Shown here: one piece after another, positions 866-34,561 of the stretch | How positions within the stretch are numbered: position 1 is the first letter of the stretch | How the letters are laid out: each line of letters opens with the position of its first letter | DNA from: a bacterium | Lineage (GTDB): Bacteria > SAR324 > NAC60-12 | Assembly: GCA_965209155.1 (NCBI GenBank) | Contig: OZ242383.1 | Location: 928,001 to 992,000 of the forward strand | Direction: 5' to 3' | DNA length: 64,000 nucleotides | Notes under the pieces: model-generated | The model's database searches: none | Told to the model about the DNA's origin: nothing | Seen by the model: only the letters and a program-made list of their open reading frames with translations | Translations under genes and position numbers: made by a program

Positions 866-1942
866 TTACGGATGTTCTCCGGAGGGAAGGACATCGGCCA
901 ATTGGTCACGGACCCCGTATTGGTCGAAGAGGACTTCTACCTGAGCCCAAGTGGTGGGATCCACCGGGATGCCTTGGGCCAATCGCTCTTGGCGCGTCTT
1001 GGCGGATCTTTCCCCCGGAAAGAAAACACCGCTCGATCCTTCCATCGGGGGGGTGTCTTGAACGTATCTCATCATCTGTTGGACTTCGGCCCGGATGGTT
1101 TCCAGGGGCGCCATGCGGCCCAGGTCGATGGCGAGTATCGTGGATCCTCCCCAAAAATCAATCTTTCCTGGAGGCAAAGCGATCTGGCCAAGAAGTCCTC
1201 CGAAAAGAGCGATCATGACCGAGAGCGCATATCCCTTGTGGCCCCCTTGCATCCCGCCGACGGGTAGGTGCGCACCTCCATCGAAGAAATCGTTCGGGTT
1301 CCGACTGGGGACCCCATGCTTATCAATGATCCAAGTATCTGGAAGCACCTGTTCCTGGTTACGGTATAACCGTAGCGTCCCATCAGCCGTCATGGAGCTG
1401 GAAAAATCAAGCAGGATAGGGGTGCCTTCGGCATGAGGAAATGCCATCGCTAAAGGGTTCGTCGCCAGTCGGGCCTCGCGTCCTCCAAAGGGAGCCACGG
1501 TAGCGACCGGTCTTCCCGCCCAGCCCGTGAAAAAGATAGCAGCCATGCCAGTCGCTGCTGCCATTGCGGGGTAGGTTCCGATTCGACCCGTATTGGTATG
1601 ATTTCCCATCGTCACCAAGCTGATTCCATGATCACGAGCCTGCTCGATCGCCATTTCGGTCGCTCGTGTGGCAACCACCTGTCCGAAGGTAGAATGGCCA
1701 TCGATCTGGAGGATCGCCCCATGGTTTCCAACGACTTCCGGCTCTGCCTTTGGGTCGACCACGCCTTCCTCAATTTCTTTCAGGTACTGGGGGATGCGAA
1801 GGAACCCATGGGAATCGTATCCCGCAAGATTGGCCTGGGCCAGGTGGTCCGCCACGATACCAGCGTGGCCGGCCGAGGCTCCTCCAGCCTGCAACATCAC
1901 ATCGGTTATCCGGACAATCTGATTTTTCGTTAATATTGGCAT
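866..1942 (-). CDS. Ldh_2 family (malate/lactate/ureidoglycolate-type) oxidoreductase, intact, cassette copy A
   Basis: ANLAGYDSHG, TNPLA, GGHKGYAL and C-terminal PGE motifs of the Ldh_2/YbiC family. Confidence 0.9.
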   Translation of the reverse strand: MPILTKNQIVRITDVMLQAGGASAGHAGIVADHLAQANLAGYDSHGFLRIPQYLKEIEEGVVDPKAEPEVVGNHGAILQIDGHSTFGQVVATRATEMAIEQARDHGISLVTMGNHTNTGRIGTYPAMAAATGMAAIFFTGWAGRPVATVAPFGGREARLATNPLAMAFPHAEGTPILLDFSSSMTADGTLRLYRNQEQVLPDTWIIDKHGVPSRNPNDFFDGGAHLPVGGMQGGHKGYALSVMIALFGGLLGQIALPPGKIDFWGGSTILAIDLGRMAPLETIRAEVQQMMRYVQDTPPMEGSSGVFFPGERSAKTRQERLAQGIPVDPTTWAQVEVLFDQYGVRDQLADVLPSGEHP

Positions 1943-1963
1943 GAATAGCTCCTGAGAATTCAG

Positions 1964-2011
1964 TTAAATGGTTCCCCCACTGAAAAAAGCGACCTTGTCT
2001 TTCAGCTTCAC
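1964..2011 (-). pseudogene. N-terminal stub of a deleted SDR gene
   Basis: GTG AAG CTG AAA GAC AAG GTC GCT TTT TTC AGT GGG GGA (MKLKDKVAFFSGG) matches the starts of the SDRs at 23096 and 33642, then stops. Confidence 0.85.
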
Positions 2012-2023
2012 GGTTTCCCTTTT

Positions 2024-2704
2024 TTATTGATAATTGATGGTAGTTTGTCTCCCCGCTAACCACTGGATGCCCCGCCCCACTACCGTTCGAAAACCGGGGT
2101 TTGAGTAGGCCTGGTTATCCTCCCCGTTTTGATAGCAGAAAACCCTCGCCTTACCGAAGGTCCGCGTCCACGCGATCGTCTTCATACTCTGGGGATGATC
2201 GGTGGTGAGCAGGATGTGGCTATCCTCGTCCGCGTCATCTATGTGATAGGTCTCGTCGACGATGTCCCACGGCTCCAGTGTGGTCGTGATGGGGTGTTCG
2301 GTGTCCGCGACGTCAATGCGCACGGTCTGGTCAAGGGCGTACGATCCCATATCCCCTCGCGTACGCATTCCGCTAAACTCTCTCCAGAGGGGCCAGTCTG
2401 CAAAGGCCTTCAGCGCGTGATGCAGCAGAAATATCCCCTGTTCCCCATCGCCAAGGCTCTCCAGCGTTTCCTTCATGGCGGCCTCGAATTTGCCATCTTC
2501 TTCAGCGGGCGTGCTTTGGTGATAGTTGAAGAACACGAGTACGTCGTAGGTCCCTGGACCGCGTGCTGAGTCGAAAATGAAGTCCCACATGTTCTGAGGG
2601 TAGGCCTCGATTTCGGGAAGGGAGCGAAGCATGGACTGGAAGCCGACCACGTCATACTCGTGCTCGCCGGTAATCACTGCTGTTTTTATCTTTCCATTCG
2701 TCAT
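2024..2704 (-). CDS. ThuA-like (class I glutamine amidotransferase-like fold) protein, copy A
   Basis: Likely start MTNGKIK after GGAG; HPIT, DETY and AWTRTFGKARVF motifs of ThuA domains; paralogues at 27078 and 33655. Confidence 0.8.
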   Translation of the reverse strand: MTNGKIKTAVITGEHEYDVVGFQSMLRSLPEIEAYPQNMWDFIFDSARGPGTYDVLVFFNYHQSTPAEEDGKFEAAMKETLESLGDGEQGIFLLHHALKAFADWPLWREFSGMRTRGDMGSYALDQTVRIDVADTEHPITTTLEPWDIVDETYHIDDADEDSHILLTTDHPQSMKTIAWTRTFGKARVFCYQNGEDNQAYSNPGFRTVVGRGIQWLAGRQTTINYQ

Positions 2705-2735
2705 TTTTCTGTCTCCTGTAAATGATGAAGTGCAT

Positions 2736-2837
2736 CCCCCCTTTTTTTCAAAGGGGCGCAGGGGGGATTTTAAGGGTCGATCCAACCAAAAAATCCCGCT
2801 TCCGCGGACGGCCCTAACCCCCTTTTTCTAAGGGGGG
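2736..2837. repeat. REP-like palindromic pair (CCCCCC-TTT..-AAGGGG family)
   Basis: Two C-run/T-run/AAGGGG hairpins with GGGATTT/AAATCCC inner arms, in the BNR-ThuA spacer. Confidence 0.6.
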
Positions 2838-2908
2838 AATCTGGGAGTGCCCCTCTCCGATAATACAAGGTTAAGTCAAATAATGGAGCGGGTTTGCAAT
2901 CCATCCCT

Positions 2909-3907
2909 TTAGTTGGGCAGCAAGGCCACGGAACGGACCTCGCCAAACTCCTTTTGCAGCTTTTGCCACGAATCACCCCCGTCTTCGCTTACGTACACAT
3001 AGCCGAGGAGGCTGACCGCGACGATTACGTTGGGCCGCTCCTTGTGAGAGCTTATCCAATAGATAAGGGAGTTGGGCGCTACCGGCAGGGACACCCGTTC
3101 CCAACTTTTGCCACCATCCCGGGTGCGCTGCACGGCACCGGTGAAACCGGGAATAGTGTCGCCGTTGCCGACGAACATGACATCGGGGTCATCGGTCTTG
3201 ATTAAGATACCCCGGCAGTAGGACCCGGACTGTGCTTCATGGAACTTGGGGAACTCGTGGTAATCCCAGCTTTCGCCTTCGTCGTGGCTGGTGGCGAGCC
3301 CAAAGGGCGAGGTACAGTAGACTGTGGCACTGGCGCCAGTTTTCAGAGCCACATCGTGAATGTCGCCGTGGAAGGGATTAGGACCCAGGTCGGGCAGGTG
3401 GACCCAGGTGTCGCCACCATCCAGACTTTTGTAAACCCCGTCAACCTCCATGCTAGCCCAGATGGTGCGGTTGTCCCTGGGATCTACGACCATGCGGGTG
3501 GTCCGCGGCGCCCCGATGGGGCAATTCATGTTTACGCCCATATGAAGCTTGCTCCAAGACCTCCCCCCATCCTTGGAGCGGAATCCCTCGGGCCGCGTGC
3601 CCACGAATAGGGTGTCCGGGTCCGTGGGGTCCACAGCCACCGACCAGACCTCGAGGTCCGATGTGGGGGCATCCAGGTTTTCCCAGGTCACGCCACCGTC
3701 TTCACTACGGAAAACGCCCCCGTCGGAACCGGCCAATACCCGCCGGGGGTTGTCCGGATACACGCACAACGCCCTGACGTTGCCTTCATCCGGTATTGTT
3801 TTTCTGGGGTCCAGGCGACCAACATGGGTCCAGGATTCACCGCCGTCTGAACTCACGTTCAGGTCTTGGCCGACGGTGCCGATGAGAAGTGTGTAATCTT
3901 TTGCCAT
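2909..3907 (-). CDS. BNR/Asp-box beta-propeller protein (WD40/YVTN/BNR-like), copy A
   Basis: Repeated SxDGGxTW Asp-boxes; start MAKDYT after AGGAG; no signal peptide visible. Confidence 0.85.
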   Translation of the reverse strand: MAKDYTLLIGTVGQDLNVSSDGGESWTHVGRLDPRKTIPDEGNVRALCVYPDNPRRVLAGSDGGVFRSEDGGVTWENLDAPTSDLEVWSVAVDPTDPDTLFVGTRPEGFRSKDGGRSWSKLHMGVNMNCPIGAPRTTRMVVDPRDNRTIWASMEVDGVYKSLDGGDTWVHLPDLGPNPFHGDIHDVALKTGASATVYCTSPFGLATSHDEGESWDYHEFPKFHEAQSGSYCRGILIKTDDPDVMFVGNGDTIPGFTGAVQRTRDGGKSWERVSLPVAPNSLIYWISSHKERPNVIVAVSLLGYVYVSEDGGDSWQKLQKEFGEVRSVALLPN

Positions 3908-4053
3908 ATCACGTCTCCTTATTCGAGTTGTTAAAATAATGTTATTTACGGTCAGAAAATTATATAAATCGGGTGTCATCTCGACGGGGTGGCCTAGACG
4001 CCAAGAGAGATCTTAAGACCCCTCTCCTCCCCAAAGAGTCTCTTTGACAGATG

Positions 4054-9907: not shown

Positions 9908-9967
9908 ATCTAGTTCTGCCCAGTGAAAATAAGTTTACAGTTAATCACATTCGATAATTTATGCAGT

Positions 9968-10074
9968 TGTCATTCCTGTGCTTGACCAGGAATCCGGGGG
10001 GTTTTCTGTGAATCCTGGATACCGGATCATCCTGGTCCCGGATCAAGTCCGGAATGATCCGGGACCGGCATGAC
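9968..10074. repeat. Nested REP-like palindromic element (GTCATTCC...GGAATGAC family)
   Basis: Self-complementary ends TGTCAT/ATGACA; related copies at ~34392-34531, 51282-51381, 52512-52640 and ~57140-57170. Confidence 0.7.
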
Positions 10075-10341
10075 ACTGTGGCTGTAAACGCGCTTTTGCC
10101 CTACGGCACTAGTTTTTTGGGGTTGAAGGAATAAACATTCTTTCTCTGCTAACGTGATTTCCCCATAGGCTTCTCCTGATACGATCAATTAGACTTTGAA
10201 CCACGCCATTAGCATGATCCAGAAAACCAGGGGACACGTAACAAGTACATCTCCCCAGTTTTTCTCCCATCCGCTGCTTCGGAAGGGGATGGATGGACAA
10301 ACAGCTCAGGGATACAGCATCCCAAAAACTCTCTTTCTAGC

Positions 10342-10358
10342 TTCAAGCAGTGTGCCAA
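10342..10358 (-). promoter_or_regulatory. Sigma54 (-24/-12) promoter upstream of oppA cluster 1
   Basis: Minus strand TTGGCACACTGCTTGAA (TGGCAC-N5-TTGA; one deviation from TTGC); identical copy at 42052-42068. Confidence 0.75.
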
Positions 10359-10433
10359 ATCTGAGACTATTCAGTTAACTTACTGTAATTATTATCTATT
10401 TTAAAAAAGGGGAGGGTTGGGTATGAGAAGCAA

Positions 10434-10544
10434 GTGTCTACATATATTGACACTACTAGATCGGAAAGAGAGGTTAACTCATTGATATTTAATATTTAAA
10501 CAACAAAATCTAGGTTTTAAGACATATGTCTCATATTCTGGACA
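10434..10544. promoter_or_regulatory. Enhancer pair TGTC-N10-GACA with an intervening IHF site
   Basis: Palindromes at 10435-10452 and 10527-10544, 92 bp apart; TATCAATGAGTTA (minus strand, 10475-10487) fits the IHF consensus WATCAANNNNTTR. Confidence 0.7.
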
Positions 10545-10648
10545 CTTTTATATTTATTTTATCTGATGAAACCATGTCCTTTGGGCGGGAATCCGAATGC
10601 GGCCCATCCTAGTCATGGTCAGAGATAATCGGCTCTGCCAGAAACGTG

Positions 10649-10822
10649 CCCGTGTTCGTAATCGTGCTCGTGCTCGTGCTCGATAGAAACGTTCCCGATT
10701 CCCTTGAGAGGAGGATTCCGAATAGAAGAGACGGCAGGGAATCCAGGATTCTCTGGGATACCGTTTCGTTCACGAGCACGAGTACGGCTCACGATTACGA
10801 TCACGAGACGCCCCTTCCAGGT
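10649..10822. repeat. ~175-bp element with inverted CTCGTG/CACGAG hexamer arms, copy 1
   Basis: CGTGCT hexamer run on the left, CACGAG run on the right; inverted homologue at 29057-29230. Confidence 0.8.
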
Positions 10823-10845
10823 CCTCATCAAAACCACCTTCTATG

Positions 10846-10887
10846 GCGGACGGCTAGTCGCGGACGGCTAGTCGCGAACGGCCAGTC
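10846..10887. repeat. 14-bp tandem repeat x3
   Basis: GCGGACGGCTAGTC GCGGACGGCTAGTC GCGAACGGCCAGTC. Confidence 0.85.
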
Positions 10888-10903
10888 AAGGTGAATTTTT
10901 TAC

Positions 10904-13900
10904 TTAAGGTCTTGGGATAGTACGAATTCCGTACTTTTTCATCTTATTGTAGAGGGCTGCGCGGGAGATTCCGAGGGCGGCAGCGGTTTTTACCTTGTGG
11001 CCCTGGGAATTTTTCAGGGCGCTGAGAATCGTCGCTTTTTCATAATCCGCAACGGCCTGATCCAGCGCCATTTTCCTGGGGTTGGTGTTATCTCTGAAAT
11101 TTGAAGTTTCGCTGATTTTGGAATTTATCCGTTCTCCCGGAAAATCAATCTCTCCCTGGGAGACATAGCGATGCAGGGTGTTTTGCAACTCCCGGACATT
11201 GCCCGGCCAATCGTAAACCTGCAGGGCTTCCAGAAATCCCGGTGTGATGGGCTTTCCTTTATGAAGCGATGCTGTGGATTTCAATAAATGCTCGACCAGC
11301 AGGGGGATATCCTCTTTTCTTTCCCGGAGCGGGGGCAGGCGAATGGGAAAGACATGAATCCGGTAATAGAAATCTTCTCGAATTTGCCCCGTCTTTACCC
11401 GATCACTCAGGTCCTGGTTTGAGGCTGCAATGAAGCGGATATCGGGCTTGATGACCTTGGTGGTGCCAACCGGGGTAAAGCCACTGCCCTCCAGGACACG
11501 AAGCAGTTTAACCTGCAGGTTCAGCCCGATATCGGCCAGTTCATCCAGGAACAAAGTGCCTTTGTCGGTCAGGTGCAGGAAACCGCGCTGATCGCTGTCG
11601 GCCCCGGTGAAAGCCCCTTTTTTGTGTCCAAAGAACTCGCTCTCGATCAGGTTTTCGGAGATGGCCCCGAGGTTCACCGGGAAAAACACTTGCTCCTTGC
11701 GGTCACTGGCCTCGTGAATGGCCCGGGAGACCAGTTCTTTCCCGGTTCCCGATTCGCCGTAGAGGATCACGTTCGCATCGGTGGCCGCCGCTTGTAAAAT
11801 CAGCTCATATACCCGTTGCATGGGCTCGCTTTTTCCGATAATGTCGCCAAACCGAAAGCGGTCTTTGCTGCGGGTTCGCAGGCGGACATTTTCTTCACGC
11901 AGGGAGGTTTCGCTCGCTTTCAGCTCGTCCAGCGCCTTTTTGAGGTTTTCGTGAAGCCTGGCGTTTTCCAGGGAAATGGCGATCTGGGAGCTAAGGTGTT
12001 TGATCACCTCGAATCGTCGGGAGGTGAAGGCTCCCTCAACCAGGTTGTTTTCCAGGTAAATGATTCCACTCAGGACGGACTGATGAGTGATCGGTGCGCA
12101 CAGGATGGATTTAGGACGTTCCCGTTTAATATAGTCATCCTCGACAAACCGTTCCTCCCGAGAGGCGTTGTCCAAAACCAGGTGTTCCCGGGTTTGTTTC
12201 ACCCAGGAGATGATCAAGAGGGAGATAGAGCCGACCTTTTCCACAGGCAGGGAAAGCGGTAGAAAACATTCGACCTGCTCGGCGCTCCCGCGGGCAGCAA
12301 TGAGAGACTGACCTTCGGTTTCCAGAATCAGGGTTGCTGTCTGGGCTCCGGCATTTTCCATGAGAATGCGGAGCAGGATCTCCAGCAGCGGTTCCAACTC
12401 AAGGGTACTGGAGATGGTCTCCGAGGCTTTGAGCATCGTTGCCAGGTCCAGGTTGGCCGAAGGAGACACCGCCCCTTCGGCACGATCATCGACAATCAAC
12501 CCGGGATATCGAGACTTCAGGTGCGCGACCTTCCGTTTTGCCCCCCAGGCTTCGTACTGCTCCATTGCTGAGTGCAGGTAAGACCTGGCGGCGGCGCTCT
12601 GCCTCTGGTTGAGCAAGTACCTGGCTGCCAGTTCATCGGCCAGGGCTTCCTCGTGGATAAACTCGCTCTCTCTGGCCAAAGCGATGGCCTGGTCATAGTG
12701 GTGCATAATGGTATCGGGTTCACCCTCCAAAATTCGCATCCGTTCGGCTTCCACCAGGTGATATTTATGCAAATAATTGGGCGGTGCGCAGCGCGCCAGT
12801 TTCTCCAATGTATCTTGATTGTCATCGACCTGGGTGAGGATCTCCTCCTTTTCCCCCTCGCTCCCCTGGCCGTAAACCGCCAGGAGAGCGAGGGATTGGT
12901 AGCAGTTGGCCAGGGGATCACCAAGGGAATCCTTGTAAGTTTTCATCAGGTTGATCATTTCAAAAACCGTCTCCCGGGCTGCTTCATATTCTTCGAACAG
13001 GTATTGCAGCACCAGCTTTTGGTAATTAAAATGGCTCTGTTCAGGATAGACGAACTCTGCACCTGTCACCCTGTGGTATTGATCCATGATGACGCTCGAC
13101 AGGGGCGAAGGTTCCTCCATTAGAATCGTGACCGCCTTCATCTGCATTTCGGCATGGCGAGACCCGAGAATAGAATCGATCTTCTTGAGAGCAAGCTTCA
13201 ACGTCGACAATTCCCCTTTCAGCCAATTCAGCTCCTTCCCGCACATAAACGCTATACGACACCTTGCGACGGCGCTAGCACCGGCATTGATGAAATCTCC
13301 CGTCTCGATTCCCATCTTATGAGCTTCCAGCAAGGGCTCCAATGACGCCGATAGCGGCTCCCGATAGAACCGGGTCGCGCCGTTGAAATACGTGGAAACT
13401 CTACAGTTTATTTCCTTCAGATCAAGCGCTTCCATGAGCTGTATGCCCAGACGAGCGAGTTCATAACCAAATTCAAAATCCTGCGTAAACACGCAATATA
13501 TAAATCCAAGGAGACAATAGAATTCGGGTGAATATTCAGGATAAAAATAATTGAGCAGAAAAGAGATACGTTTTGCAGCGATGGGCTGCCAAAGACCGTC
13601 ATCCAAGGTAGTCCCAGCCACGCCATATGGCATATGGAGCTCATACAGGATGTGAACAAGGACCTCGGCATCCGGTTGGGTGAGCGGCTCAAAGCGCATC
13701 ACGTCTGCGACGCTTTTACCGGCCAGGCTGGATTTGATTTGAACCAGGGTCTGCTGCCACTGGTCGGGAGACAAATGGCTCAGTTGACACCCCAATTTCT
13801 CTAGAATCTCCGCGCCTATTTCCATGGCCTTCTTTAATTCGCCCTGGGTCGTATACGCCTGGATCCGGTATCGATAAACATTGACCAGGTCCAGGTCCTT

Positions 13901-16900
13901 TTGGGCGTTGTCTTTTACGGCACCGGCCAGCTTCTCCATCAACTCGAAGCGTCCGCAGAGCCATGACATCTCCGTGGCGGCTTCATGCAGGGATAAGGCC
14001 AGGGGATATTGCCGTTTCCAGGCGGCAACCCCTAAAAGCTCCAGGCCGATGGTAAAATATTGCAGGGCCTGTTCAAAAGCCGAAGCCGCCCTGGCCTTAA
14101 GACCGGCTTCCAGGTTGAGTTCCGCCAGGTGCGATCGTTCTTTCGCCCTGTTGTTCACCCTCCGGGCCAGGTTGAGATGGTGGACGATGTCAAAGAGCAG
14201 ATTATCCCTTTCCTCCGGAGCGGATTGCTTGAGCAGGGTCTGACCGATTTGAAGATGGACCGACTGTCTCTCCTTTTCGGCAATGAGAGCATAGGCAGCC
14301 TGCTGCACCCGGTCATGCAGGAATTTGTAGCTGCCACCCTCAGTGTTCGCTCCGTCCGGGGGATTATCCGGCTGCGGAGCCTGGGAAAAATCGAGGATCA
14401 ACCCGGTTTCCAGGGCCGGCAACAGGTTCTCATAGAGCTCCTCGCTTCCGGATCCGCTGATCAGTTCCAACGATTCCAGGTCAAAGGTATTGCCGATGCA
14501 GGCCGCCAGGCTTAAGAGTCGCCTGGTTTCAGAGGAAAACCGGTGGAGCCGGTCTATCAGCAAATCCACCACATTCTCGGTCACCACCAGGAATTCGATG
14601 GCAGCCAGCTCCCAGGTCCATCGTTTTTCCTCAGGGGAGTAGCGGATCAGCTCCTTCTCGGAGAGTACGGTCAAGAACTGGCTCACAAAGAAGGGATTGC
14701 CGCCGGTTTTGCGCACCAGGACCTCTGTCAGCGGGTTTGCCTCCTCAGGACGGCAGTGGCAGGTTTGGACGAGCAGTTGTGAGATGTTCTCTGGGTTCAA
14801 GGGTTTTAAGGGAATCGTTTGCACAGGCTGGCCTGATTTTTTGATCACCTCACAACTGATCGTCAGCCGGTGGCCGGCATCCACCTCGTTGTCGCGATAG
14901 GCTCCCAGGAAGAGCAGAGGTTTCCCCTCTTGATCCTGAGCGATCCGTTCCATCAGCTTGAGGGTATCGGCGTCCACCCACTGCAAGTCGTCCAGAAAAA
15001 TAACCAGCGGATGGGTTTTTTCACAGAAAAGGTCGATGAAATCCAGTAAAACGGCAGTGAAGCGGTTCCGGGACTCCAGCGCTCCCATTTCCGGTAGCGG
15101 GGGTTGCGGGCCGATCACCTGTTCCAGTTCCGGAATCACCCGGGTTATCAGTTGTCCGTTGGGTCCCAGCGCTGCCCATATCCTGTTTTTCCAACGCTCC
15201 AATTCGGATTTGTCTTCAACCGGTATCTCCCGGGTGAGTCCCCGCAGCGCCTGGATCAGGGCGCTGTATGAGATATTGTGCCGGAGCTGATCAAATTTGC
15301 CGGAGATGAAGAAGCCATTTTTTTGGGCAACGGACCGGTGAATTTCACCGACCAGTGCGGTTTTACCGACACCGGCGGATCCCGAGACCAACACCATCTC
15401 GGTTGCTCCCTGGCTGACTCGCTCCAGGGCGGCCTCCAGGGCGGCGATTTCATCCTCCCGGCCGTAAAGCCCCGGGGCGATCTGCAGTTCTTTGGGAATG
15501 TCATGGCGGCCCAGGGGAAAATCGGACAGGTTTTCCTGGTTTTCCAGTTGCTCCACACATGCCAGGAGATCGGCTGAAAGGCCCGAGTGGCTCTGGTAGC
15601 GCGCCTCGGCACGCTTTGCCAGCAGTTTCATCACCAGGCGGGAAAGGACTCTGGGTACTTGCGGTTCAATCTCGTCAGGGAGTACAGGCTTCCGGGCAAT
15701 GTGAGCGTGGATAATTTCCATGGCCTCCCGGGATTCGAAAGGCACTCTCCCACTGAAAAGTTCATAAAGGGTAGCCCCCAGGGAATAAAAATCACTGCGA
15801 TAATCGAGGGGGCGGTTCATCCGGCCGGTCTGCTCGGGGGAGATATAGGGCAAGGTTTCCCCGCTTAGCTGGGGACTCAACGTCGTCAAATTTTCCTTAG
15901 GCAACCGGGTGGCCAGGCCGAAACCGCTCAGTTTGACCGTCCCCGATGCCGGATCGACAAAAATATTCAACGGATTGATCATTTTATGAAGAATACCCTG
16001 CCGGTGCACTTCTTTCAGGGTGCTGGTCAATGAAACCGCTATCTTCAGCGAGTCCAGCAGGTCGAGCCGGGCGGCATCCATCAGCTTTCTTAAAGGGAGC
16101 GCATCAGTATTTTCCAGGATCAAAGCCCATCCGTTTTCACACTGCGCCAGTTCCTCTGACCTGAGGACCCCATCGATCTCGAGAGCCTGAGTGATCTCAT
16201 GCTCATGCCGTATTTCTGCCAGCTCCTGGGCGCTCTGCTCGGAAGATGCCGCTCCCTTGATCAGGACCAAAAGCCCGTCGCTTTGCCGCTTGCCGCGCCA
16301 GAGCCGGGTCCGCCCACTTTCAAAAATGACCTCCTCCAGCGAGTAACCCGGGACCTCGGGTTTTTCCCCACTGGAAACGAACTTTGTTTTGTTCACAACT
16401 GGTTCAGGAGGTACAGAAGCCGCTTTATTCGCTTTGGCCGCAGATTTCCGCAGATTTCCGCGGATGTTAGATGCTTTGGGTTTAACAACCTGCTGCTTGC
16501 GGGGGGGCTTTTTTATCATCTCTTCGACGAATTCCTTTTCAAAGGTTTCCTCTTCAGATTGGTGGATAATTTCTATCTTCGTGTCATGGAGTCTGCAAAC
16601 CTCTTCCAACAGTTCAAAGTCAAAGCGAAGCAAACGCTCTTTGCGGAGGACGTAGATCGTTTCTGCTTGATTATTGATGATGGTGAAGAGCAATTGTTTC
16701 CATCCTGGCTTCTTGTCGTTGATGCCACCTCCGATATCCGTGATGATTTGATAGGGGCTTCCTTGAAGCGCAAGATAGGATTCAATCAATTGTTCTTCTC
16801 TGAGAAGATCATCTTGTTGATGAGGGGAATCCACACACGCATACCCTAGATTGATCCTGTTTTTGGGTTGATCGTTCTGGAGGACTTGTGCCAGTTGTTC

Positions 16901-17026
16901 GTCGCTATACATTCGGTGACCTCCCTGGCTCCTGTAGGCAGGCACAAGGATCCCTTTTCGCTCCCATATCCTGATGGTTTCAACGGTTTTCCCAACCTTT
17001 TTTGCAAATGGACCAATACTGTACAT
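10904..17026 (-). CDS. Giant sigma54-dependent activator 1: IS607-TnpA-derived N-terminus, Ser/Thr pseudokinase, AAA (STAND-like), helical region, GAF, sigma54 AAA+, Fis HTH
   Basis: MerR-type HTH plus resolvase-like region (aa ~1-171); YISPEQTGRMN..DYRSDFYSLG; SGSAGVGKT and LDDLQW; GIIYLEN GAF; GESGTGKE, GAFTGA, LFLDE, WPGNVREL; LGISRAALYNK. Confidence 0.9.
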   Translation of the reverse strand: MYSIGPFAKKVGKTVETIRIWERKGILVPAYRSQGGHRMYSDEQLAQVLQNDQPKNRINLGYACVDSPHQQDDLLREEQLIESYLALQGSPYQIITDIGGGINDKKPGWKQLLFTIINNQAETIYVLRKERLLRFDFELLEEVCRLHDTKIEIIHQSEEETFEKEFVEEMIKKPPRKQQVVKPKASNIRGNLRKSAAKANKAASVPPEPVVNKTKFVSSGEKPEVPGYSLEEVIFESGRTRLWRGKRQSDGLLVLIKGAASSEQSAQELAEIRHEHEITQALEIDGVLRSEELAQCENGWALILENTDALPLRKLMDAARLDLLDSLKIAVSLTSTLKEVHRQGILHKMINPLNIFVDPASGTVKLSGFGLATRLPKENLTTLSPQLSGETLPYISPEQTGRMNRPLDYRSDFYSLGATLYELFSGRVPFESREAMEIIHAHIARKPVLPDEIEPQVPRVLSRLVMKLLAKRAEARYQSHSGLSADLLACVEQLENQENLSDFPLGRHDIPKELQIAPGLYGREDEIAALEAALERVSQGATEMVLVSGSAGVGKTALVGEIHRSVAQKNGFFISGKFDQLRHNISYSALIQALRGLTREIPVEDKSELERWKNRIWAALGPNGQLITRVIPELEQVIGPQPPLPEMGALESRNRFTAVLLDFIDLFCEKTHPLVIFLDDLQWVDADTLKLMERIAQDQEGKPLLFLGAYRDNEVDAGHRLTISCEVIKKSGQPVQTIPLKPLNPENISQLLVQTCHCRPEEANPLTEVLVRKTGGNPFFVSQFLTVLSEKELIRYSPEEKRWTWELAAIEFLVVTENVVDLLIDRLHRFSSETRRLLSLAACIGNTFDLESLELISGSGSEELYENLLPALETGLILDFSQAPQPDNPPDGANTEGGSYKFLHDRVQQAAYALIAEKERQSVHLQIGQTLLKQSAPEERDNLLFDIVHHLNLARRVNNRAKERSHLAELNLEAGLKARAASAFEQALQYFTIGLELLGVAAWKRQYPLALSLHEAATEMSWLCGRFELMEKLAGAVKDNAQKDLDLVNVYRYRIQAYTTQGELKKAMEIGAEILEKLGCQLSHLSPDQWQQTLVQIKSSLAGKSVADVMRFEPLTQPDAEVLVHILYELHMPYGVAGTTLDDGLWQPIAAKRISFLLNYFYPEYSPEFYCLLGFIYCVFTQDFEFGYELARLGIQLMEALDLKEINCRVSTYFNGATRFYREPLSASLEPLLEAHKMGIETGDFINAGASAVARCRIAFMCGKELNWLKGELSTLKLALKKIDSILGSRHAEMQMKAVTILMEEPSPLSSVIMDQYHRVTGAEFVYPEQSHFNYQKLVLQYLFEEYEAARETVFEMINLMKTYKDSLGDPLANCYQSLALLAVYGQGSEGEKEEILTQVDDNQDTLEKLARCAPPNYLHKYHLVEAERMRILEGEPDTIMHHYDQAIALARESEFIHEEALADELAARYLLNQRQSAAARSYLHSAMEQYEAWGAKRKVAHLKSRYPGLIVDDRAEGAVSPSANLDLATMLKASETISSTLELEPLLEILLRILMENAGAQTATLILETEGQSLIAARGSAEQVECFLPLSLPVEKVGSISLLIISWVKQTREHLVLDNASREERFVEDDYIKRERPKSILCAPITHQSVLSGIIYLENNLVEGAFTSRRFEVIKHLSSQIAISLENARLHENLKKALDELKASETSLREENVRLRTRSKDRFRFGDIIGKSEPMQRVYELILQAAATDANVILYGESGTGKELVSRAIHEASDRKEQVFFPVNLGAISENLIESEFFGHKKGAFTGADSDQRGFLHLTDKGTLFLDELADIGLNLQVKLLRVLEGSGFTPVGTTKVIKPDIRFIAASNQDLSDRVKTGQIREDFYYRIHVFPIRLPPLRERKEDIPLLVEHLLKSTASLHKGKPITPGFLEALQVYDWPGNVRELQNTLHRYVSQGEIDFPGERINSKISETSNFRDNTNPRKMALDQAVADYEKATILSALKNSQGHKVKTAAALGISRAALYNKMKKYGIRTIPRP

Positions 17027-17255
17027 CTGTGATCTGTCCCGAATGAGTGATTGTAATCATTCATATAAAAAAGATTTAATAACAATTCAAGATATTTACA
17101 GATATTGGTTAACTGATTTGCAAATGGACCAATACTGTACATCTGTGATCTGTCCCGAATGAGTGATTGTAATCATTCATATAAAAAAGATTTAATAACA
17201 ATTCAAGATATTTACAGATATTTAGAGATATTTACAGATATTAGTTAACTGATCC
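16514..17255 (-). mobile_element. IS607-family relic: tnpA-derived domain plus candidate left end with 10-bp direct repeats
   Basis: TnpA motifs degenerate (YACVDS, DIGGG, ERLLRFDF); AGATATTTAC-type decamers x4 at 17206-17245; no tnpB follows. Confidence 0.75.
17001..17252. repeat. Tandem duplication (period 116 bp) of the activator-1 start and upstream region
   Basis: TTTGCAAATGGACCAATACTGTACATC...GATATTTACAGATATT at 17001 and 17117; the copies carry 2 vs 4 decamers. Confidence 0.95.
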
Positions 17256-17305
17256 TACGGGAAGATCAGGAAATAGAGCTACACCCCATTCTTTCCTTTT
17301 CATCT

Positions 17306-18460
17306 CTACGGCCAGTGGTTGGGTCTCAGTTGGAGGAGAAACTCATCAACTGGCCAACACGAAATTCCATCTACTAATAGTTTTTCTGTTCCTCGATAGA
17401 GCAATATCGTGTTTGCCTCAGGATAATCCGCTTGAAACACTTTGAGGGATCTCAAGGTTTTTGGGTGGATCTGTTGGGCATTTTTAACCTCCAGCGCATA
17501 GAAATGATGGTCTCCATATAAGACAATATCCACCTCAGAGCCTCCCCGCGATCGCCAAAAATAACAATTTGCATTACCCTCAGAATAATCACACCAGGCT
17601 TTTAAATGTTGTAACACCAAACCCTCCAAGGCAAGACCCCCTATTTCCTCTGGGCTATCAATGGGCCCTTTGGGACGCAAATGGTGGTAAACCCCGGCAT
17701 CAAACAGATAAAATTTCGCTTGCGCTGTCAGGGCGCGTCTGGCTCGTTTGGTAAAGACCGGCAGCTTATATCCCAATAGGAGATCTTCAAGAATCGATAG
17801 ATAATTCTCGACAATTTTTCGGGATACCTGGCACTCTCTGGCAATATTGCTGAGGTTCAAAACACTGCCGTGTGAAAAACTAATGACTTCCAGAAATCGG
17901 GCAAAGGTTCCGATATCCCGGACTAACGCCTCTTCCTTGACCTCTTCCTTCAAATAAAGAGAGAGGTAAGCCGCCAAGGTCTTATCCGGTTTCCTTGCCG
18001 AAACAATCAAAGGGATCAACCCATTGCCGAGTGCTGCATCCAGTGAAAAATCGGCACCCATTTCCGCAGCCAGAAAGGGATGGTAACGGGTTAATAAGGC
18101 GCGGCCGGCTAATAGATTGACGCCACCCCGGCGCAATTTTCGAGTACTCGAACCGGTCAGAATAAACTGATGGGATTTGTGCTCCTCAATCAAACTGTGG
18201 ATACTGTCCAGAATTGCAGGCACTTTTTGAACTTCATCAATAATGTAACGTTTGATTTGTGGGTTTGCGGTGACGATTTGTTTGATTCGCTCGGGGTAGG
18301 CCACGTGGTTTCTGAAAGTCCTGTCGTCCAACAAGTCGATGAGGTACGCGTCCGGAAAAGTTTTTTTGAGCCAGGTTGACTTTCCTGTCCCTCTGGGACC
18401 GAAAATAAAGAAGCTATCCGCAGGAGCTTCAAAAAATCTTTTGAAATATCTGTCCCTCAT
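17306..18460 (-). CDS. AAA+ ATPase with DUF4143 (COG1373-type)
   Basis: GPRGTGKST, IIDEVQK, ILTGSS, KFYLFDAG, YFWRS..EVD..EVK. Confidence 0.85.
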   Translation of the reverse strand: MRDRYFKRFFEAPADSFFIFGPRGTGKSTWLKKTFPDAYLIDLLDDRTFRNHVAYPERIKQIVTANPQIKRYIIDEVQKVPAILDSIHSLIEEHKSHQFILTGSSTRKLRRGGVNLLAGRALLTRYHPFLAAEMGADFSLDAALGNGLIPLIVSARKPDKTLAAYLSLYLKEEVKEEALVRDIGTFARFLEVISFSHGSVLNLSNIARECQVSRKIVENYLSILEDLLLGYKLPVFTKRARRALTAQAKFYLFDAGVYHHLRPKGPIDSPEEIGGLALEGLVLQHLKAWCDYSEGNANCYFWRSRGGSEVDIVLYGDHHFYALEVKNAQQIHPKTLRSLKVFQADYPEANTILLYRGTEKLLVDGISCWPVDEFLLQLRPNHWP

Positions 18461-22343: not shown

Positions 22344-23096
22344 TCACCCCGCGGTTATTCCGCCGTCAATGGAGAAGTCGCTACCGGTGACATAAGAGGA
22401 CTCGTCCGAAGCCAGGTAAAGGGCGCCGTAGGCAATGTCTTCCGGCTGGCCCTGGCGGCCTAGGGGAATCATGTTGAACGTGTTCTGCCGGTATTCTTCG
22501 TCCTCCATCAAGTAGGCGTTCATCATTGTTTCGGTGCTGCCCGGATTTATGGCGTTGCCGCGGATACCTTCCCGGGAGTATTGACTAGCGGTGGACTTGG
22601 TCAATAGCCGTACCGCAGCCTTGGACACGGTGTAGGCGCACGATGCCTCCGCGCCGGCAAACAGCCCAGACACCGAAGCAATGTTGATAATGGAGCCGCC
22701 ACCCGCTTTCCGCGTCTCGGGTATGGCGTGTTTTGTCCCCAGAAACGCACCCTTGGTATTTGTATCCCAAACCTGGTCCCACTGTTCGCTGGTGGTCTCC
22801 TCCACCAGACCGGTTCGGAAAATAGCGGCGTTGTTCACCAGAACGTCCAGTTTCCCGAAGTGGGCGATGGTGGACGTCACGGCTTGTTGCCACTCAGCCT
22901 CGCTGGTGACGTCCAACCGGACGAAGAGGCACTCGGCGCCGGTTTCATTAATTTCGGTCTCGGTCTGACGCCCTTCTTCTTCCAGCACGTCTCCGAAGAC
23001 CACTTTGGCCCCTTCCCTGGCAAACAACTTGGCCATCGCTGCGCCCATGCCCCTGGCTCCCCCGCTGAAAAAAGCGACTTTGTCTTTCAGCCTCAT
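22344..23096 (-). CDS. SDR family oxidoreductase, copy B
   Basis: SGGARGMG, NNAA, YTVSK, NPG, IDGG. Confidence 0.9.
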   Translation of the reverse strand: MRLKDKVAFFSGGARGMGAAMAKLFAREGAKVVFGDVLEEEGRQTETEINETGAECLFVRLDVTSEAEWQQAVTSTIAHFGKLDVLVNNAAIFRTGLVEETTSEQWDQVWDTNTKGAFLGTKHAIPETRKAGGGSIINIASVSGLFAGAEASCAYTVSKAAVRLLTKSTASQYSREGIRGNAINPGSTETMMNAYLMEDEEYRQNTFNMIPLGRQGQPEDIAYGALYLASDESSYVTGSDFSIDGGITAG

Positions 23097-23790
23097 GGTT
23101 CCCCTCCGTCGTTGAATTTGGGAAGCAAGGCCACGGAACGGACCTCGCCAAACTCCTTTTGCAGCTTTTGCCACAAATCACCACCGTCTTCGCTCACGTA
23201 CACATAGCCGAGGATGCTGGCCGCGACGATTACGTTGGGCCGCTCCTTGTGAGTGGCGATCCCATAGATATTGGAGTTGGGCTCTTCCGGCAGAGGCACC
23301 GGTTCCCAGCTTTTGCCACCATCCTGGGTGCGCTGCACGGCACCGGTTGTACCGGGAATAAAGTCGCCGTTGCCGACGAACATGACATCGGGGTTATCCG
23401 CTTTGATGACCATGCCGCGGCAGTAGGACCCGGAGTCTGCTTCATGGAACTTGGGGAAATGCGGAATCCCTCGGGCCGCGTGCCCACGAAAAGGGTGTCC
23501 GGGTCCGTGGGGTCCACAGTCACCGACCAGACCTCGAGGTTCGATGTGGGGGCATCCAGGTTTTCCCAGGTCGCGCCGCCGTCTTCGCTGCGGAAAACGC
23601 CCACGTCGGAACCGGCCAATACCCCCCGGGGGTTGTCCGGATACACGCACAACGCCCTGACGTTGCCCTCATCCGGTATAGTTTTCTTGGGCTCCAGGCG
23701 ACCAACGTGGGTCCAGGATTCACCGCCATCGGAACTCGCGTTCAGGTCTTGGCCGACGGTGCCGATGAGAATTGTGTAATTTTTTGCCAT
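23093..23790 (-). pseudogene. BNR beta-propeller with internal deletion, copy B
   Basis: Junction GGATTCCGC|ATTTCCCCAAG removes the central blades and shifts frame. Confidence 0.9.
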
Positions 23791-26390: not shown

Positions 26391-27055
26391 CTAGGGATTT
26401 TCTCCAGAGGGAACGACATCCGCCAATTGGTCAAGGACCCCATAACGGTCGAAGAGTGCTTCTACCTGATCCCAAGTGGTGGGATCCACCGGGATGCCCT
26501 GGGCCAATCGCTCTTGGCGCGTCTTGGCGGATCTTTCTCCCGGAAAGAAAACCCCGCTCGATCCTGCCATCGGGGGGGTGTTTTGAAAGTATCTCATCAT
26601 CTGTTGGACCTCGGCCCGGATGGTTTCCAGGGGCGCCATGCGGCCCAGGTCGATGATGAGTATCGTGGATCCTGCCCACAGATCCATCTTTCTTGGAGGG
26701 GAAGCGATCTGGCCAAGAAGTGCCCCGAAAAGCGCGACCATGACCAAGAGCGCATATCCCTCGCCAGTTCGGTCGCTCGTGTGGCAACCACCTGACCAAA
26801 GGTAGCATGGCCATCGATCTGGAGGATCCCCCCATGGTTGCCAACGACTTCCGGCTCTGCCTTTGGATCGCAATCTCCGTCCTCAATGTTTTTCAGGTAC
26901 TGGGGGATGCGAATGAACCCATGGGAATCGTATCCCGCAAGATTGGCATTGGCCAGGTGGTCCGCCACGATACCAGCGTGGCTGGCCGAGGCTCCTCCCG
27001 CCTGCATCATCACATCGGTTATCCGGACAATCTGATGTTTCGTTAATATTGGCAT
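26391..27055 (-). pseudogene. Ldh_2 oxidoreductase with the same internal deletion, copy C
   Basis: Identical junction CTGGCGAGGGATATGCG as in copy B. Confidence 0.9.
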
Positions 27056-27077
27056 GAATAGCTCCTAAGAATTCAGT

Positions 27078-27773
27078 TTAGCGGTGATAGAGGGAAACCC
27101 TCCCCGCTAACCACTGGATGCCCCGCCCCACTACCGTTCGAAAACCGGGGTTTGCGTAGGCCTGGTTATCGTGCCCGTTCTGATAGCAGAAGACCCTCGC
27201 CTTACCGAAGGTCCGCGTCCACGCGATCGTCTTCATACTTTGGGGATGATTGGTGGTGAGCAGGATGTGGCTATCCTCGTCCGCGTCGTCTATGTTATAG
27301 GTCTCGTCGACGATGTCCCATGGCTCCAGTGTGGCAGTGATGGGGTGCTCGGTGTCCGCGACGTCGATGTGCACGGTCTGGTCGAAGGCGCATGGTACAC
27401 TGCCTCGCTGACGCATGCCGCTAAGCTCTCTCCATAGCGGCCAGTCGGGAAAGGCTACCAGCGCGTGATGCAGCAGAAATATCCCCTGGTCCCCATCGCG
27501 AAGGCCCTCCAGTGTCTCCTTTATGGCTCCGCTCTGCTTAGATGTTCCGGGCTCTAATTTGCCATCTTTTTCAGCGGGCGTGCGGAGGTGCATGTTGTAG
27601 AACACTAATACGTCGTAGTTCCCTGGACCACGTGCCGAGTCGAAAACGAAGTCCCACATGTTCTGAGGGTAGGCCTCGATTTCGGGAATGGTGCGAAGCA
27701 TGGACTGGAAGCCGACCACGTCGTACGGGTGCCCGCCGGTAATCACTGCTGTTTTTATCTTTCCATTCGTCAT
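27078..27773 (-). CDS. ThuA-like protein, copy C
   Basis: Paralogue of 2024-2704. Confidence 0.85.
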   Translation of the reverse strand: MTNGKIKTAVITGGHPYDVVGFQSMLRTIPEIEAYPQNMWDFVFDSARGPGNYDVLVFYNMHLRTPAEKDGKLEPGTSKQSGAIKETLEGLRDGDQGIFLLHHALVAFPDWPLWRELSGMRQRGSVPCAFDQTVHIDVADTEHPITATLEPWDIVDETYNIDDADEDSHILLTTNHPQSMKTIAWTRTFGKARVFCYQNGHDNQAYANPGFRTVVGRGIQWLAGRVSLYHR

Positions 27774-27925
27774 GTTTCTGTCTCCTGCGTAATGTTTCGC
27801 TTAACCACGTAAATCGTTTATTCCCTTGTCATAGGGTTTCGCTTCGCTCCACCGGAATGCCTGGGCCGCATTCGGAGACCACCCATGCTGTTATGACATG
27901 CTCCGTTGGAGCAAATACGGTCCGG

Positions 27926-28951
27926 TTAGTTAGGCAGCAAGGCCACGGAACGGACCTCGCCAAACTCCTTTTGCAGCTTTTGCCACGAATCACCCCCATC
28001 TTCGCTCACGTACACATAGCCGAGGATGCTGACCGCGACGATTACGTTGGGTCGCTCCTTGTGAGTGGCGATCCCATAGATATTTGAGTTGGGCTCTTCC
28101 GGCAGAGGCACTGGTTCCCAGCTTTTGCCACCATCCTGAGTGCGCTGCACGGCACCGATTGTACCGGGAATACCGTCGCCGTTGCCGACGAACATGACAT
28201 CGGGGTTATCCGCTTTGATGACCATGCCCCGGCAGTAGGACACGCGATCCGCTTCATGGAACTTGGGGAAATAGTGGTAATCCCAGCTTTCGCCTTCGTC
28301 GTGGCTGGTGGCGAGCCCAAAGGGAGAGGTACAGTAGACTGCGGAACGGGCGCCAGTTTTCAGAGCCATACTGTGAATGTCACCGTGGAAGGGATTAGGA
28401 CCCAGGTCGGGCAGGTGTATCCAGTTGTCTCCGCCATCCAGGCTCTTGTAAACCCCGTCAACCTCCATGCTAGCCCAGATGGTGCGGTTGTCCCTGGGAT
28501 CTACGATCATGCAGGTGGTCCGCGGCGGTGAGGGAGGTTCAGTGACGGGGCTCTTCATGTTTACGCCCATATGAAGCTTGCTCCAAGACCTCCCCCCATC
28601 CCTGGAGCGGAATCCCTCGGGCCGCGTGCCCACGAATAGGGTGTCCGGGTCCGTGGGGTCCACAGTCACCGACCAGACCTCAAGGTTCGATGTGGGGGCA
28701 TCCAGGTTTTCCCAGGTCGCGCCGCCGTCTTCGCTGCGGAAAACGCCCACGTCGGAACCGGCCAATACCCGACGGGGGTTGTCCGGATACACACACAACG
28801 CCCTGACGTTGCCCTCCGTCGGTAGTGTGTTTTTCAGCTTGGGCGTGTGGTAGATTTCAGGGCGAATGTTGGTCCAGGATTCACCGCCGTCGGCACTCAC
28901 GTTCAGCCCTTGGCCGATGGTGCCAATGAGGATTGTGTAATCTTTTGCCAT
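27926..28951 (-). CDS. BNR beta-propeller protein, copy C
   Basis: Asp-boxes; paralogue of 2909-3907. Confidence 0.85.
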   Translation of the reverse strand: MAKDYTILIGTIGQGLNVSADGGESWTNIRPEIYHTPKLKNTLPTEGNVRALCVYPDNPRRVLAGSDVGVFRSEDGGATWENLDAPTSNLEVWSVTVDPTDPDTLFVGTRPEGFRSRDGGRSWSKLHMGVNMKSPVTEPPSPPRTTCMIVDPRDNRTIWASMEVDGVYKSLDGGDNWIHLPDLGPNPFHGDIHSMALKTGARSAVYCTSPFGLATSHDEGESWDYHYFPKFHEADRVSYCRGMVIKADNPDVMFVGNGDGIPGTIGAVQRTQDGGKSWEPVPLPEEPNSNIYGIATHKERPNVIVAVSILGYVYVSEDGGDSWQKLQKEFGEVRSVALLPN

Positions 28952-32886: not shown

Positions 32887-33642
32887 TCACCTCCCTGCGG
32901 CTATTCCGCCGTCAATGACCAAGTCGCTGCCGGTGACAAAAGAGGACTCGTCCGAAGCCAGGTAAAGAGCGCCATAGGCCACGTCTTCCGGCTGGCCCGT
33001 GCGACCCAGGGGAATCCTGTTGAGCATTTTCTCTTGATATCCCTCCTCCGCCATCAAGTGGGCGTTCATAGTTGTTTTGATGCTGGCCGGAATTATGGAG
33101 TTGACGCGGATCCCTTCCCTGGCGTATTGAATAGCGGTGGACTTGGTCAAAAGCCGCACCGCAGCCTTGGACATGGTGTAGGTGCACGATGCCTCCATGC
33201 TGCCTTCCAGCCCAGCAATCGAAGAGATGTTGATCATGGAGCCGCCGCCCGCTTTCCGCATCTCGGGTATGGCGTGTTTTGTCCCCAGAAACGCGCCCTT
33301 GGCGTTTATTTCCAAATCCCGGTCCCACTGCTCGCTGGTGATCTCCTCCACCAGACCGGTCCGGTAAGTACCGGCGTTGTTCACCAGAACGTCCAGTTTC
33401 CCGAAGCGGGCGACGGTGGACGCCACGGCTTGCTGCCACTCGGCCTCGCTGGTGACATCCAACCGGACGAAGAGGCACGCGCCACCGGTTTCATTAATTT
33501 GTGTCTCGGTCTGACGCCCTTCTTCTTCCAGCACGTCTCCAATGACCACTTTGGCCCCTTCCCTGGCAAACAGCTTGGCCATCGCTGCGCCAATACCCCT
33601 GGCTCCCCCGCTGATAAAAGCGACCTTGCCTTTCAGTTTCAT
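32887..33642 (-). CDS. SDR family oxidoreductase, copy D
   Basis: SGGARGIG, NNAG, YTMSK, IDGG. Confidence 0.9.
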   Translation of the reverse strand: MKLKGKVAFISGGARGIGAAMAKLFAREGAKVVIGDVLEEEGRQTETQINETGGACLFVRLDVTSEAEWQQAVASTVARFGKLDVLVNNAGTYRTGLVEEITSEQWDRDLEINAKGAFLGTKHAIPEMRKAGGGSMINISSIAGLEGSMEASCTYTMSKAAVRLLTKSTAIQYAREGIRVNSIIPASIKTTMNAHLMAEEGYQEKMLNRIPLGRTGQPEDVAYGALYLASDESSFVTGSDLVIDGGIAAGR

Positions 33643-33654
33643 GGTTTGCCTCTT

Positions 33655-34353
33655 CTATTGATGATTGATGGTTGTCCGTCTCCCCGCCAACCACTGGATG
33701 CCCCGCCCCACTACCGTTCGAAAACCGGGGTTTGAGTAAGCCTGGTTATCGTCCCCGCCCTGGTAGCAGAAGACCCTCGCCTTACCGAAGGTACGAGTCC
33801 ACGCGATCGTCTTCATACTCTGGGGATGATCGGTGGTGAGCAGGATGTGGCTATCCTCGTCCGCGTCGTCTATGTTATAGGTCTCGTCGACGATGTCCCA
33901 CGGCTTTAGTGATGCAGTGATGGGATGTGCGGTGTCCGCGACGTCGATGCGCACGGTCTGGTCGAAGGCGCACGGAATTGCGCCTCGCTGACGCATGCCG
34001 CTAAGCTCTCTCCAGAGCGGCCAGTCGGGAAAGGCTACCAGCGCGTGATGCAGCAGAAAAATCCCCTGGCCCCCATCACCAAGGCCCTCCAGCATCTCCT
34101 TTATGGCTCCGCTCTGCTTATCGGTTCCTGGCTCTGATTTGCCATCTTTTTCAGCGGGCGTGCTTTGGTGCCAGTTGAAGAACACGAGTACGTCATAGGT
34201 CCCTGGACCGCGTGCCGAGTCGAAAACGAAGTCCCACAGGTTCTGAGGGTAGGCATCGATTTCGGGAAGGGAGCGAAGCATGGACTGGAAGCCGACCACG
34301 TCATACTCGTGCTCGCCGGTAATCACGGCTGTTTTTATCTTTCCATTCTCCAT
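33655..34353 (-). CDS. ThuA-like protein, copy D
   Basis: Paralogue of 2024-2704 and 27078-27773. Confidence 0.85.
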   Translation of the reverse strand: MENGKIKTAVITGEHEYDVVGFQSMLRSLPEIDAYPQNLWDFVFDSARGPGTYDVLVFFNWHQSTPAEKDGKSEPGTDKQSGAIKEMLEGLGDGGQGIFLLHHALVAFPDWPLWRELSGMRQRGAIPCAFDQTVRIDVADTAHPITASLKPWDIVDETYNIDDADEDSHILLTTDHPQSMKTIAWTRTFGKARVFCYQGGDDNQAYSNPGFRTVVGRGIQWLAGRRTTINHQ

Positions 34354-34391
34354 GTTCCTGTCTCCTGTATTAGATTAAAGATTACAATGAT

Positions 34392-34531
34392 GTGCCATCC
34401 CGGACTTGATCCAGGACCGGGATGATCCGGGATCCAGGTACCTGGTAGCTTTGCATATCGGTTCCACGTCAGCTGCTTCCGCGTACGGCTGGATTCCTGG
34501 TCAAGCCGCTCAGAGGACCGCCGGAATGACA
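34392..34531. repeat. Nested REP-like element related to 9968-10074
   Basis: CCGGACTTGATCCAGGACCGGGATGATCC is a near reverse complement of the core at ~10024-10058. Confidence 0.7.
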
Positions 34532-34561
34532 AAAATAGAAAATCACACCCAACTAGTGCTC

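Follow-up and report, generated by a model that had tools for sequence, protein, structure and literature searches.

What is a transposase doing at the head of a giant regulatory gene, and has it been put to use there? The question is raised by the window, which is the whole stretch of 64,000 nucleotides analysed here (contig OZ242383.1, assembly GCA_965209155.1). Its minus strand carries at 16514-17026 a stop-free sequence that translates into 171 residues similar to TnpA, the transposase of IS607-family elements. A preliminary description had treated these residues as a free, domesticated protein with an intact helix-turn-helix (HTH), a lost catalytic site, an unbroken frame and a truncated last helix. 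The frame is indeed free of stops and frameshifts, but the free protein did not hold up, since residues 1-171 are the front end of a single 2040-residue open reading frame (ORF), P0001, which encodes a sigma-54 activator and continues for 1869 codons past residue 171 to a stop at 10904. Because the frame stays open beyond 16514, the truncation in the last helix marks a fusion junction and not the end of a protein. We conclude that the stretch is probably an exapted, catalytically dead IS607 TnpA, serving as the N-terminal module of the activator. The ORF and the parts of its N-terminal region are as follows.

10904..17026, minus strand: ORF P0001, with TnpA-like module, linker, kinase-like domain, AAA_16 STAND ATPase, long helical middle, GAF, sigma-54 AAA+ and HTH_8
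16883..17026, minus strand: MerR-type winged-helix DNA-binding domain, residues 1-48 (Pfam, predicted local distance difference test [pLDDT], Foldseek, dN/dS)
16511..16852, minus strand: serine-recombinase (IS607 TnpA) core, residues 59-172, predicted to be catalytically dead, ending in the first half of helix E (profiles, alignment, model)
16829..16837, minus strand: codons C64-V65-D66, where the family has R-V-S with the conserved Arg and the nucleophile Ser (translation, alignment)
16501..16514, minus strand: fusion junction on an A6-G-C7 homopolymer pair, read on the gene strand (sequence)
16349..16510, minus strand: basic linker, residues 173-226, common with Arm-type paralogues (sequence comparison)

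Fold and catalytic site of the TnpA-like module

Family and domain profile matches were computed on the first 191 residues. The module exceeds the cut-off of the NCBIfam profile for IS607 family transposases (NF033518; 122.8 bits, cut-off 110), with residues 7-172 on profile positions 3-169 of 187. Pfam MerR_1 covers residues 2-47 (E 9e-11), and Pfam Resolvase covers residues 61-170 (26.7 bits, cut-off 23.3). A phmmer search against the PDB sequences matched the module to the IS607-like catalytic domains 3lhk, 3lhf, 3ilx, and 6dgc (E 8e-20 to 6e-12), and residues 2-49 to MerR-family HTHs. An AlphaFold2 model, which was based on an alignment of 56 sequences, bears out the confident fold that the preliminary description had left to structure prediction: the mean pLDDT is 85, the HTH reaches 96-97, and values under 50 occur only beyond residue 176. 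In Foldseek, the model superposes on 3lhk, 3lhf, 6dgc, and 3ilx (E 7e-10 to 2e-7, target TM-score 0.63-0.67) and on DNA-bound MerR-family HTHs, with a root-mean-square deviation of 1.2-1.6 over 48-52 columns. The module thereby has the fold of the IS607-family TnpAs (IS607, IS1535, ISC1926; PDB 6dgb, 6dgc, 3lhk, 3lhf, 3ilx), with an N-terminal MerR-type winged helix before a serine-recombinase core. With MerR-family regulators it has in common the winged-helix fold and the Pfam MerR match of the HTH alone; it scores under every MerR-type NCBIfam cut-off, and unlike these regulators it has a recombinase core after the HTH and neither the coiled-coil dimerisation helix nor the effector domain.

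The 56-sequence alignment also gave residue conservation. The near-invariant residues of the family are T17, W21, R38, Y62, R64, V65, Q70, L74, Q77, D97, G101, D130, R131, L132, and R134. T17, W21, and R38 of the HTH are all retained in the window, in agreement with an intact HTH. The catalytic motifs are altered just as previously reported: GYACVDS stands in place of GYARVSS (R64C and S66D), DIGGG in place of DIGSG (S100G), and ERLLRFDF in place of DRLLRFGF (D130E and G136D). Q77E is a further change in the core; R131 and R134 persist. As the alignment has no gap between Y62 and Q70, the Ser-to-Asp change at the nucleophile position is secure. Beyond EEMIKK, which lies in the first half of helix E, the similarity to TnpA is lost, and the second half of this helix is missing. 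Since the nucleophile Ser has become Asp and the conserved Arg has become Cys, the module is expected, on established serine-recombinase chemistry, to be unable to cut or rejoin DNA. It differs from the IS607-family TnpAs in lacking these two residues and the second half of helix E, and its locus differs in having no tnpB, in not being repeated as an element, and in the fusion to 1869 further regulator residues.

The module's clade and the regulator family

Related modules were found in several assemblies, and among the 41 genomes searched the clade is confined to one genus. Three of the 20 listed matches (P0002, P0003, and P0004) are full-length, fused orthologues with 92%, 86%, and 85% identity over residues 1-230, and P0022 is fused as far as its own later truncation. 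A sister species (G001) holds the module twice (L004 and L012; 85-86% identity). The nucleophile position is Asp in 8/8 clade members, and position 64, covered by seven of them, is Cys in six and Phe in one. In contrast, Arg and Ser are both present in 10/10 of the free TnpAs closest to the module (34-50% identity) that were compared. The G001 copies retain DIGSG and DRLLRFGF; D130E and G136D are limited to the fused set, and S100G and Q77E to the nearest relatives of the window. By this comparison, S66D and the loss of R64 are the only clade-wide changes; the remaining motif changes are later, lineage-specific drift. In this respect, the targeted loss of catalysis first proposed is not borne out in full. 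The nearest free relative available as DNA (L019) is an ordinary element, in which tnpA is followed by a 531-residue OrfB_IS605/Cas12f-like tnpB. In the 4.26-Mb genome of the window (G000), no further IS607 TnpA or Resolvase match was found beyond the two loci of the module; both copies lie within regulator genes and lack tnpB, and they do not form a mobile repeat.

Beyond the linker, P0001 contains the following domains.

15578..16297, minus strand: protein-kinase-like domain, residues 244-483 (Pfam Pkinase, E 1e-23)
14909..15469, minus strand: AAA_16 STAND-type ATPase domain, residues 520-706 (Pfam)
11969..12400, minus strand: GAF domain, residues 1543-1686 (Pfam)
11342..11842, minus strand: sigma-54 interaction AAA+ domain (Sigma54_activat), residues 1729-1895 (Pfam, E 7e-66)
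10931..11053, minus strand: Fis-type HTH_8, residues 1992-2032 (Pfam, E 6e-10)

The translation of the sigma-54 domain contains GESGTGKE, GAFTGA, and LFLDE, which we take to be the Walker A, GAFTGA, and Walker B motifs. P0001 has in common with enhancer-binding proteins (NtrC, NifA, PrdR-type) the GAF domain, the sigma-54 AAA+ domain with GAFTGA, and the C-terminal Fis-type HTH. Unlike them, it adds about 1500 N-terminal residues (kinase-like, STAND ATPase, helical repeats) and has a second, transposase-derived DNA-binding domain at the N-terminus. It scores under the cut-off of every named NCBIfam equivalog, and our literature search found nothing on a sigma-54 activator with this kinase/STAND architecture. 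Active Ser/Thr kinases carry a catalytic Asp in the HRD motif and another Asp in the DFG motif. In P0001, HKMINPLN and GFG occupy the positions of HRD...N and DFG, and all regulator paralogues read show HKMINP(L/F)N and GFG in the kinase-like domain. Because of these replacements, the whole family would seem to consist of pseudokinases.

P0001 belongs to a large family. A tblastn search with the core of the regulator found about 26 full or near-full paralogues in the genome, with 78-86% identity and together making up about 4% of it; a separate count put the number of matching places at 29 here and at 5 in the sister species. Six genomes, from five other genera of the family, hold 2-15 more distant copies each, mostly with about 30-45% identity, and five further genomes gave single weak matches. 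We read the N-termini of the 26 paralogues upstream of the conserved PGYSLEEVIFES start. Fourteen carry an integrase Arm domain (truncated in one), ten an IS1595 zinc ribbon, and two an IS607 HTH; one example of each type was checked with Pfam (PF13356, PF12760, and PF13411), and the remaining assignments are by sequence motifs only. These N-terminal modules, drawn from three recombinase classes, are interchangeable. None of the 26 has a catalytic recombinase part except the dead core in the window.

The second IS607-type paralogue, P0005 (G000:C1, ~3999900-4005548), has an HTH 86% identical to that of P0001 over residues 1-66. Here ...RINPGY is joined straight to ...EEVIFESG, with the HTH kept and both core and linker gone; aligned with the window, its contig skips exactly 498 nucleotides (166 codons), in frame. 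Since P0005 lost the core yet kept the HTH, the regulator can evidently dispense with the dead core. When the 191-residue query was used to look for further fused forms of greater length (336-2000 residues), only P0005 came back (1 of 369 candidates), which constitutes weak evidence.

One paralogue of the IS1595 type lies in the window itself, at 42271-48241 on the minus strand. It consists of two overlapping ORFs (43352-48241 and 42271-43401) and looks like a gene with a frameshift near core residue 1440. The earlier argument from a region full of broken genes is accordingly true only in part, and the case for domestication does not depend on it.

Selection, the junction and competing explanations

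Selection was estimated as the ratio of non-synonymous to synonymous change (dN/dS, or omega; Nei-Gojobori) on ungapped codon alignments.

dN/dS of the HTH: window against L004 0.14; window against L012 0.12; window against the in-genome paralogue 0.11
dN/dS of the core: window against L004 0.38; window against L012 0.39; L004 against L012 0.17
dN/dS of the rest of the protein: window against the paralogue 0.30; domains 0.15-0.44

Synonymous changes are significantly in excess both in the HTH (P 4e-5 to 2e-3) and in the core, where the binomial P is 0.013 for the window against L004, 0.017 for the window against L012, and 0.002 for L004 against L012. These ratios indicate that the HTH is clearly selected. 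By the same measure, the dead core is constrained at a level comparable to the rest of the protein, and it is best conserved in the helices of the dimer interface (across the clade, 1/13 positions vary in helix D and 2/11 in helix B, as against 6/12 in the stump of helix E), yet it is demonstrably dispensable. Domestication fits this locus because the module is dead, open, under purifying selection, and present in several assemblies, with neither tnpB nor an active IS607 partner. The domestication claimed earlier is to this extent retained; what fell away is the stand-alone protein, and the dispensable core and the two out-of-frame G001 copies count against the claim as well. The evidence for exaptation is strongest for the HTH, which has the low omega, was kept when the core was deleted, and has parallel modules in the other paralogues.

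Several observations weigh against exaptation. The dead core drifted further in the window lineage, with extra changes at the conserved sites Q77E, S100G, D130E, and G136D, and its dN/dS there is about 3 times that of the HTH, a difference that is not significant (Fisher P 0.19, small counts). The dN/dS values are based on only 14-35 differences per comparison. One paralogue, P0005, deleted the core entirely. Both G001 copies have about 110 extra nucleotides at the junction and the kinase part in a different frame, which in one of them is additionally interrupted by stops; P0023 leaves the frame past the C-run. In total, the fusion is in frame in 5/8 sequences that cover the junction and out of frame in 3/8, where draft assemblies may have homopolymer errors at the A6-G-C7 tract. 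Furthermore, a promoter scan of 16900-17400 found no sigma-70-type promoter upstream and no terminator.

Four of the facts above, namely the lineage-specific core losses, the deleted core, the out-of-frame junctions, and the restriction to one genus, would equally be expected of a passive relic. The module would then be an IS607 remnant fused by chance and now decaying, its conservation a matter of young age, and only the downstream regulator would matter. We consider this improbable. The synonymous divergence already amounts to a dS of 0.2-0.4 while non-synonymous change is low, with an omega of 0.11-0.14 in the HTH and 0.17-0.39 in the core (P 0.002-0.017). The deletion in P0005 left the HTH exactly intact and preserved the frame, and the other 24 paralogues have recombinase-derived DNA-binding modules at the same position.

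The state of the junction bears on another explanation, in which the TnpA-like part is a small protein of its own, which some cells could produce when the A6-G-C7 tract changes length and so switches the fusion on or off. The junction does sit on two homopolymers, the TnpA-like ORF is apart from the kinase ORF in both G001 copies, and P0023 loses the frame at the C-run. The frame is continuous in the window, however, and the homopolymer differences between draft assemblies may be sequencing errors. No indel is seen in the junction-spanning contigs of X2 and X6, among them a gap-free contig from a second organism and study (X6 record 14), and the single X7 variant loses 3 nucleotides in total and stays in frame. 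We therefore regard a switchable separate protein as very improbable. Two contigs from an RNA library (X1) lie on 16552-16752 and 16824-17083 only; as DNA carry-over is possible in such libraries, they offer a weak hint of transcription. Programmed -1 frameshifting at A-AAA-AAC in the G001 copies was rejected, since a ribosome in the -1 frame would meet stops within some 10 codons; it is also unfit because the kinase frame is +1 in L012 and is -1 in L004 only after further indels.

A still-active recombinase with another nucleophile, such as S67, deserves almost no credence: S67, R131, and R134 are retained, but D66 is held at the nucleophile position by the ungapped Y62-Q70 alignment, the conserved Arg and half of helix E are lost as well, and the only two genome copies both lie in regulator genes without tnpB.

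Under exaptation, the fusion would have arisen in several steps. The window linker (RKQQVVKPKASNIRGNLRKSAAKANKA...) is that of the Arm-type paralogues, which suggests that the TnpA module replaced an Arm module. An IS607 element would have inserted into a paralogue of the Arm type, in its 5' part. The tail of helix E would have been lost together with tnpB, the right end, and the Arm domain, and a later deletion between GATAAAAAA repeats would have set the remnant in frame with the regulator. In G001, the extra junction nucleotides sit between two GATAAAAAA repeats. The HTH would act as a sequence-specific DNA-binding "address" domain, like the integrase Arm and IS1595 zinc-ribbon modules of the sister paralogues. 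The linker-coding DNA also contains a 10-nucleotide direct duplication (CAGATTTCCG twice, plus strand; 16436-16460).

As for the dead core, a study of IS607-family TnpA (PMC6188088) describes dimers formed through core helices B and D, and a helix E that makes a separate bundle and is required for cooperative filament formation; a mutant without helix E still forms complexes with an end. By analogy, the core in the window might pair two HTHs through the helix B/D interface, a proposal that we make only tentatively. A homodimer prediction with two copies of residues 1-176 scored 0.01 against a mark of 0.42; made without controls, it weighs neither way on dimerisation.

Transposase DNA-binding domains that serve as transcription factors are well documented in eukaryotes and rare in bacteria. 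Our full-text literature search, limited to the collection searched, found no report of a domesticated IS607 TnpA, and within the same scope reuse of IS607-type elements was found reported only for tnpB. The closest parallel is TldR, the TnpB-like nuclease-dead repressors. There too, a dead protein of an IS200/IS605- or IS607-type element is reported to be reused in gene regulation; the window differs in reusing tnpA and not tnpB, in protein-based instead of RNA-guided recognition, and in the fusion into a large host regulator. Extant sequences form a series from a free element (L019-like) through a dead TnpA ORF beside a regulator (G001) and an in-frame fusion (window) to an HTH-only fusion (P0005), and the steps of domestication and the purpose of keeping a dead recombinase core become directly testable.

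Repeats upstream and candidate sites downstream

The locus also offers a candidate operator built from an old transposon end. Two features lie across and upstream of the start of P0001.

17001..17222, minus strand: perfect tandem duplication with a period of 116, made of 106-nucleotide copies at 17001-17106 and 17117-17222, covering the first 26 nucleotides of the ORF and 80 nucleotides upstream
17090..17242, minus strand: direct 10-bp repeats of the AAATATCTGT type, with 17-mer copies at 17090-17106, 17206-17222, and 17226-17242

Repeats of the AAATATCTGT type number two to four per locus and are kept at 4/4 loci compared (P0001, P0005, and both copies in G001). The 12-mer TATCTGTAAATA occurs 7 times in the genome, where about 0.34 would be expected per strand, and every occurrence belongs to one of the two IS607-type loci. 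According to PMC6188088, the ends of IS607-family elements carry multiple short motifs, and the units in which TnpA occupies them measure about 10 bp. For this reason, we read the upstream repeats as a probable remnant of the left end of the element. The spacing of these short repeats, about 10 bp, may be a further likeness to the IS607 family as described there. The upstream resemblance between the window and L019 is weak.

The 10-bp direct repeats upstream of its own start codon are the likeliest targets of the HTH, and binding there is a real possibility, if short of an even chance. It would result in autoregulation or tethering. A wider reading, which we find rather doubtful, is that a single genus has built a set of some 26 giant sigma-54 activators and has, on three or more separate occasions, taken their N-terminal "address" domains from the DNA-binding parts of unrelated recombinases (the Arm domain of a tyrosine integrase, the zinc ribbon of the IS1595 DDE transposase, and the IS607 serine transposase), with the IS607 core caught midway, acting as a dimeriser and still recognising the relic end repeats. 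If true, bacteria would have a way of turning the DNA-binding domains of transposases, jointly with the ends that these recognise, into a regulator-operator pair.

Other observations concern the same upstream DNA. The window duplication creates a second ATG at 17142, which opens an out-of-frame ORF of 98 residues, and the region of P0005 (L003) has its own, different and independent tandem duplication of the promoter/5' region. In L004, the conserved repeats are separated from the likewise conserved CACAATCACTCATTCGGGACAG leader by about 100 extra nucleotides (~1380-1480), which may be a small insertion element. A TTGAAT...TATATG pair seen by eye as a promoter fails the rule of the promoter scan. 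Elsewhere, 14 separate segments of P0024, a protein of 1015 residues from the representative library, align with the query's MerR-type HTH, a pattern suggestive of an array of TnpA-like HTHs.

Downstream, both in-window paralogues are followed by ABC-transporter genes on the same strand. One feature stands out there.

10343..10357, minus strand: TGGCAC-N5-TTGA, differing at one position from the sigma-54 -24/-12 consensus and situated between the regulator and the ABC-transporter genes

This site is identical to one at 42053-42067, below the other in-window paralogue. Across the window, sites of this type are at chance level (4 found, 4.2 expected). The intergenic regions 9908-10903 and 42011-42270 share about 240 nucleotides, in which two TGT-N12-ACA palindromes lie upstream of an identical TGGCACACTGCTTGA. 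The shared segment, which includes the TGGCAC-N5-TTGA site and precedes the ABC-transporter genes, may comprise an enhancer and a sigma-54 promoter for the adjacent regulators. A three-gene cassette, with the products MPILTK..., MTNGKIKTAVITG..., and MAKDYT(I/L)LIG..., also recurs beside ABC-transporter genes, with copies in the window at 866-3979, 22344-23790, 26597-28951, and 32887-35705, some of them shortened or overlapping other ORFs.

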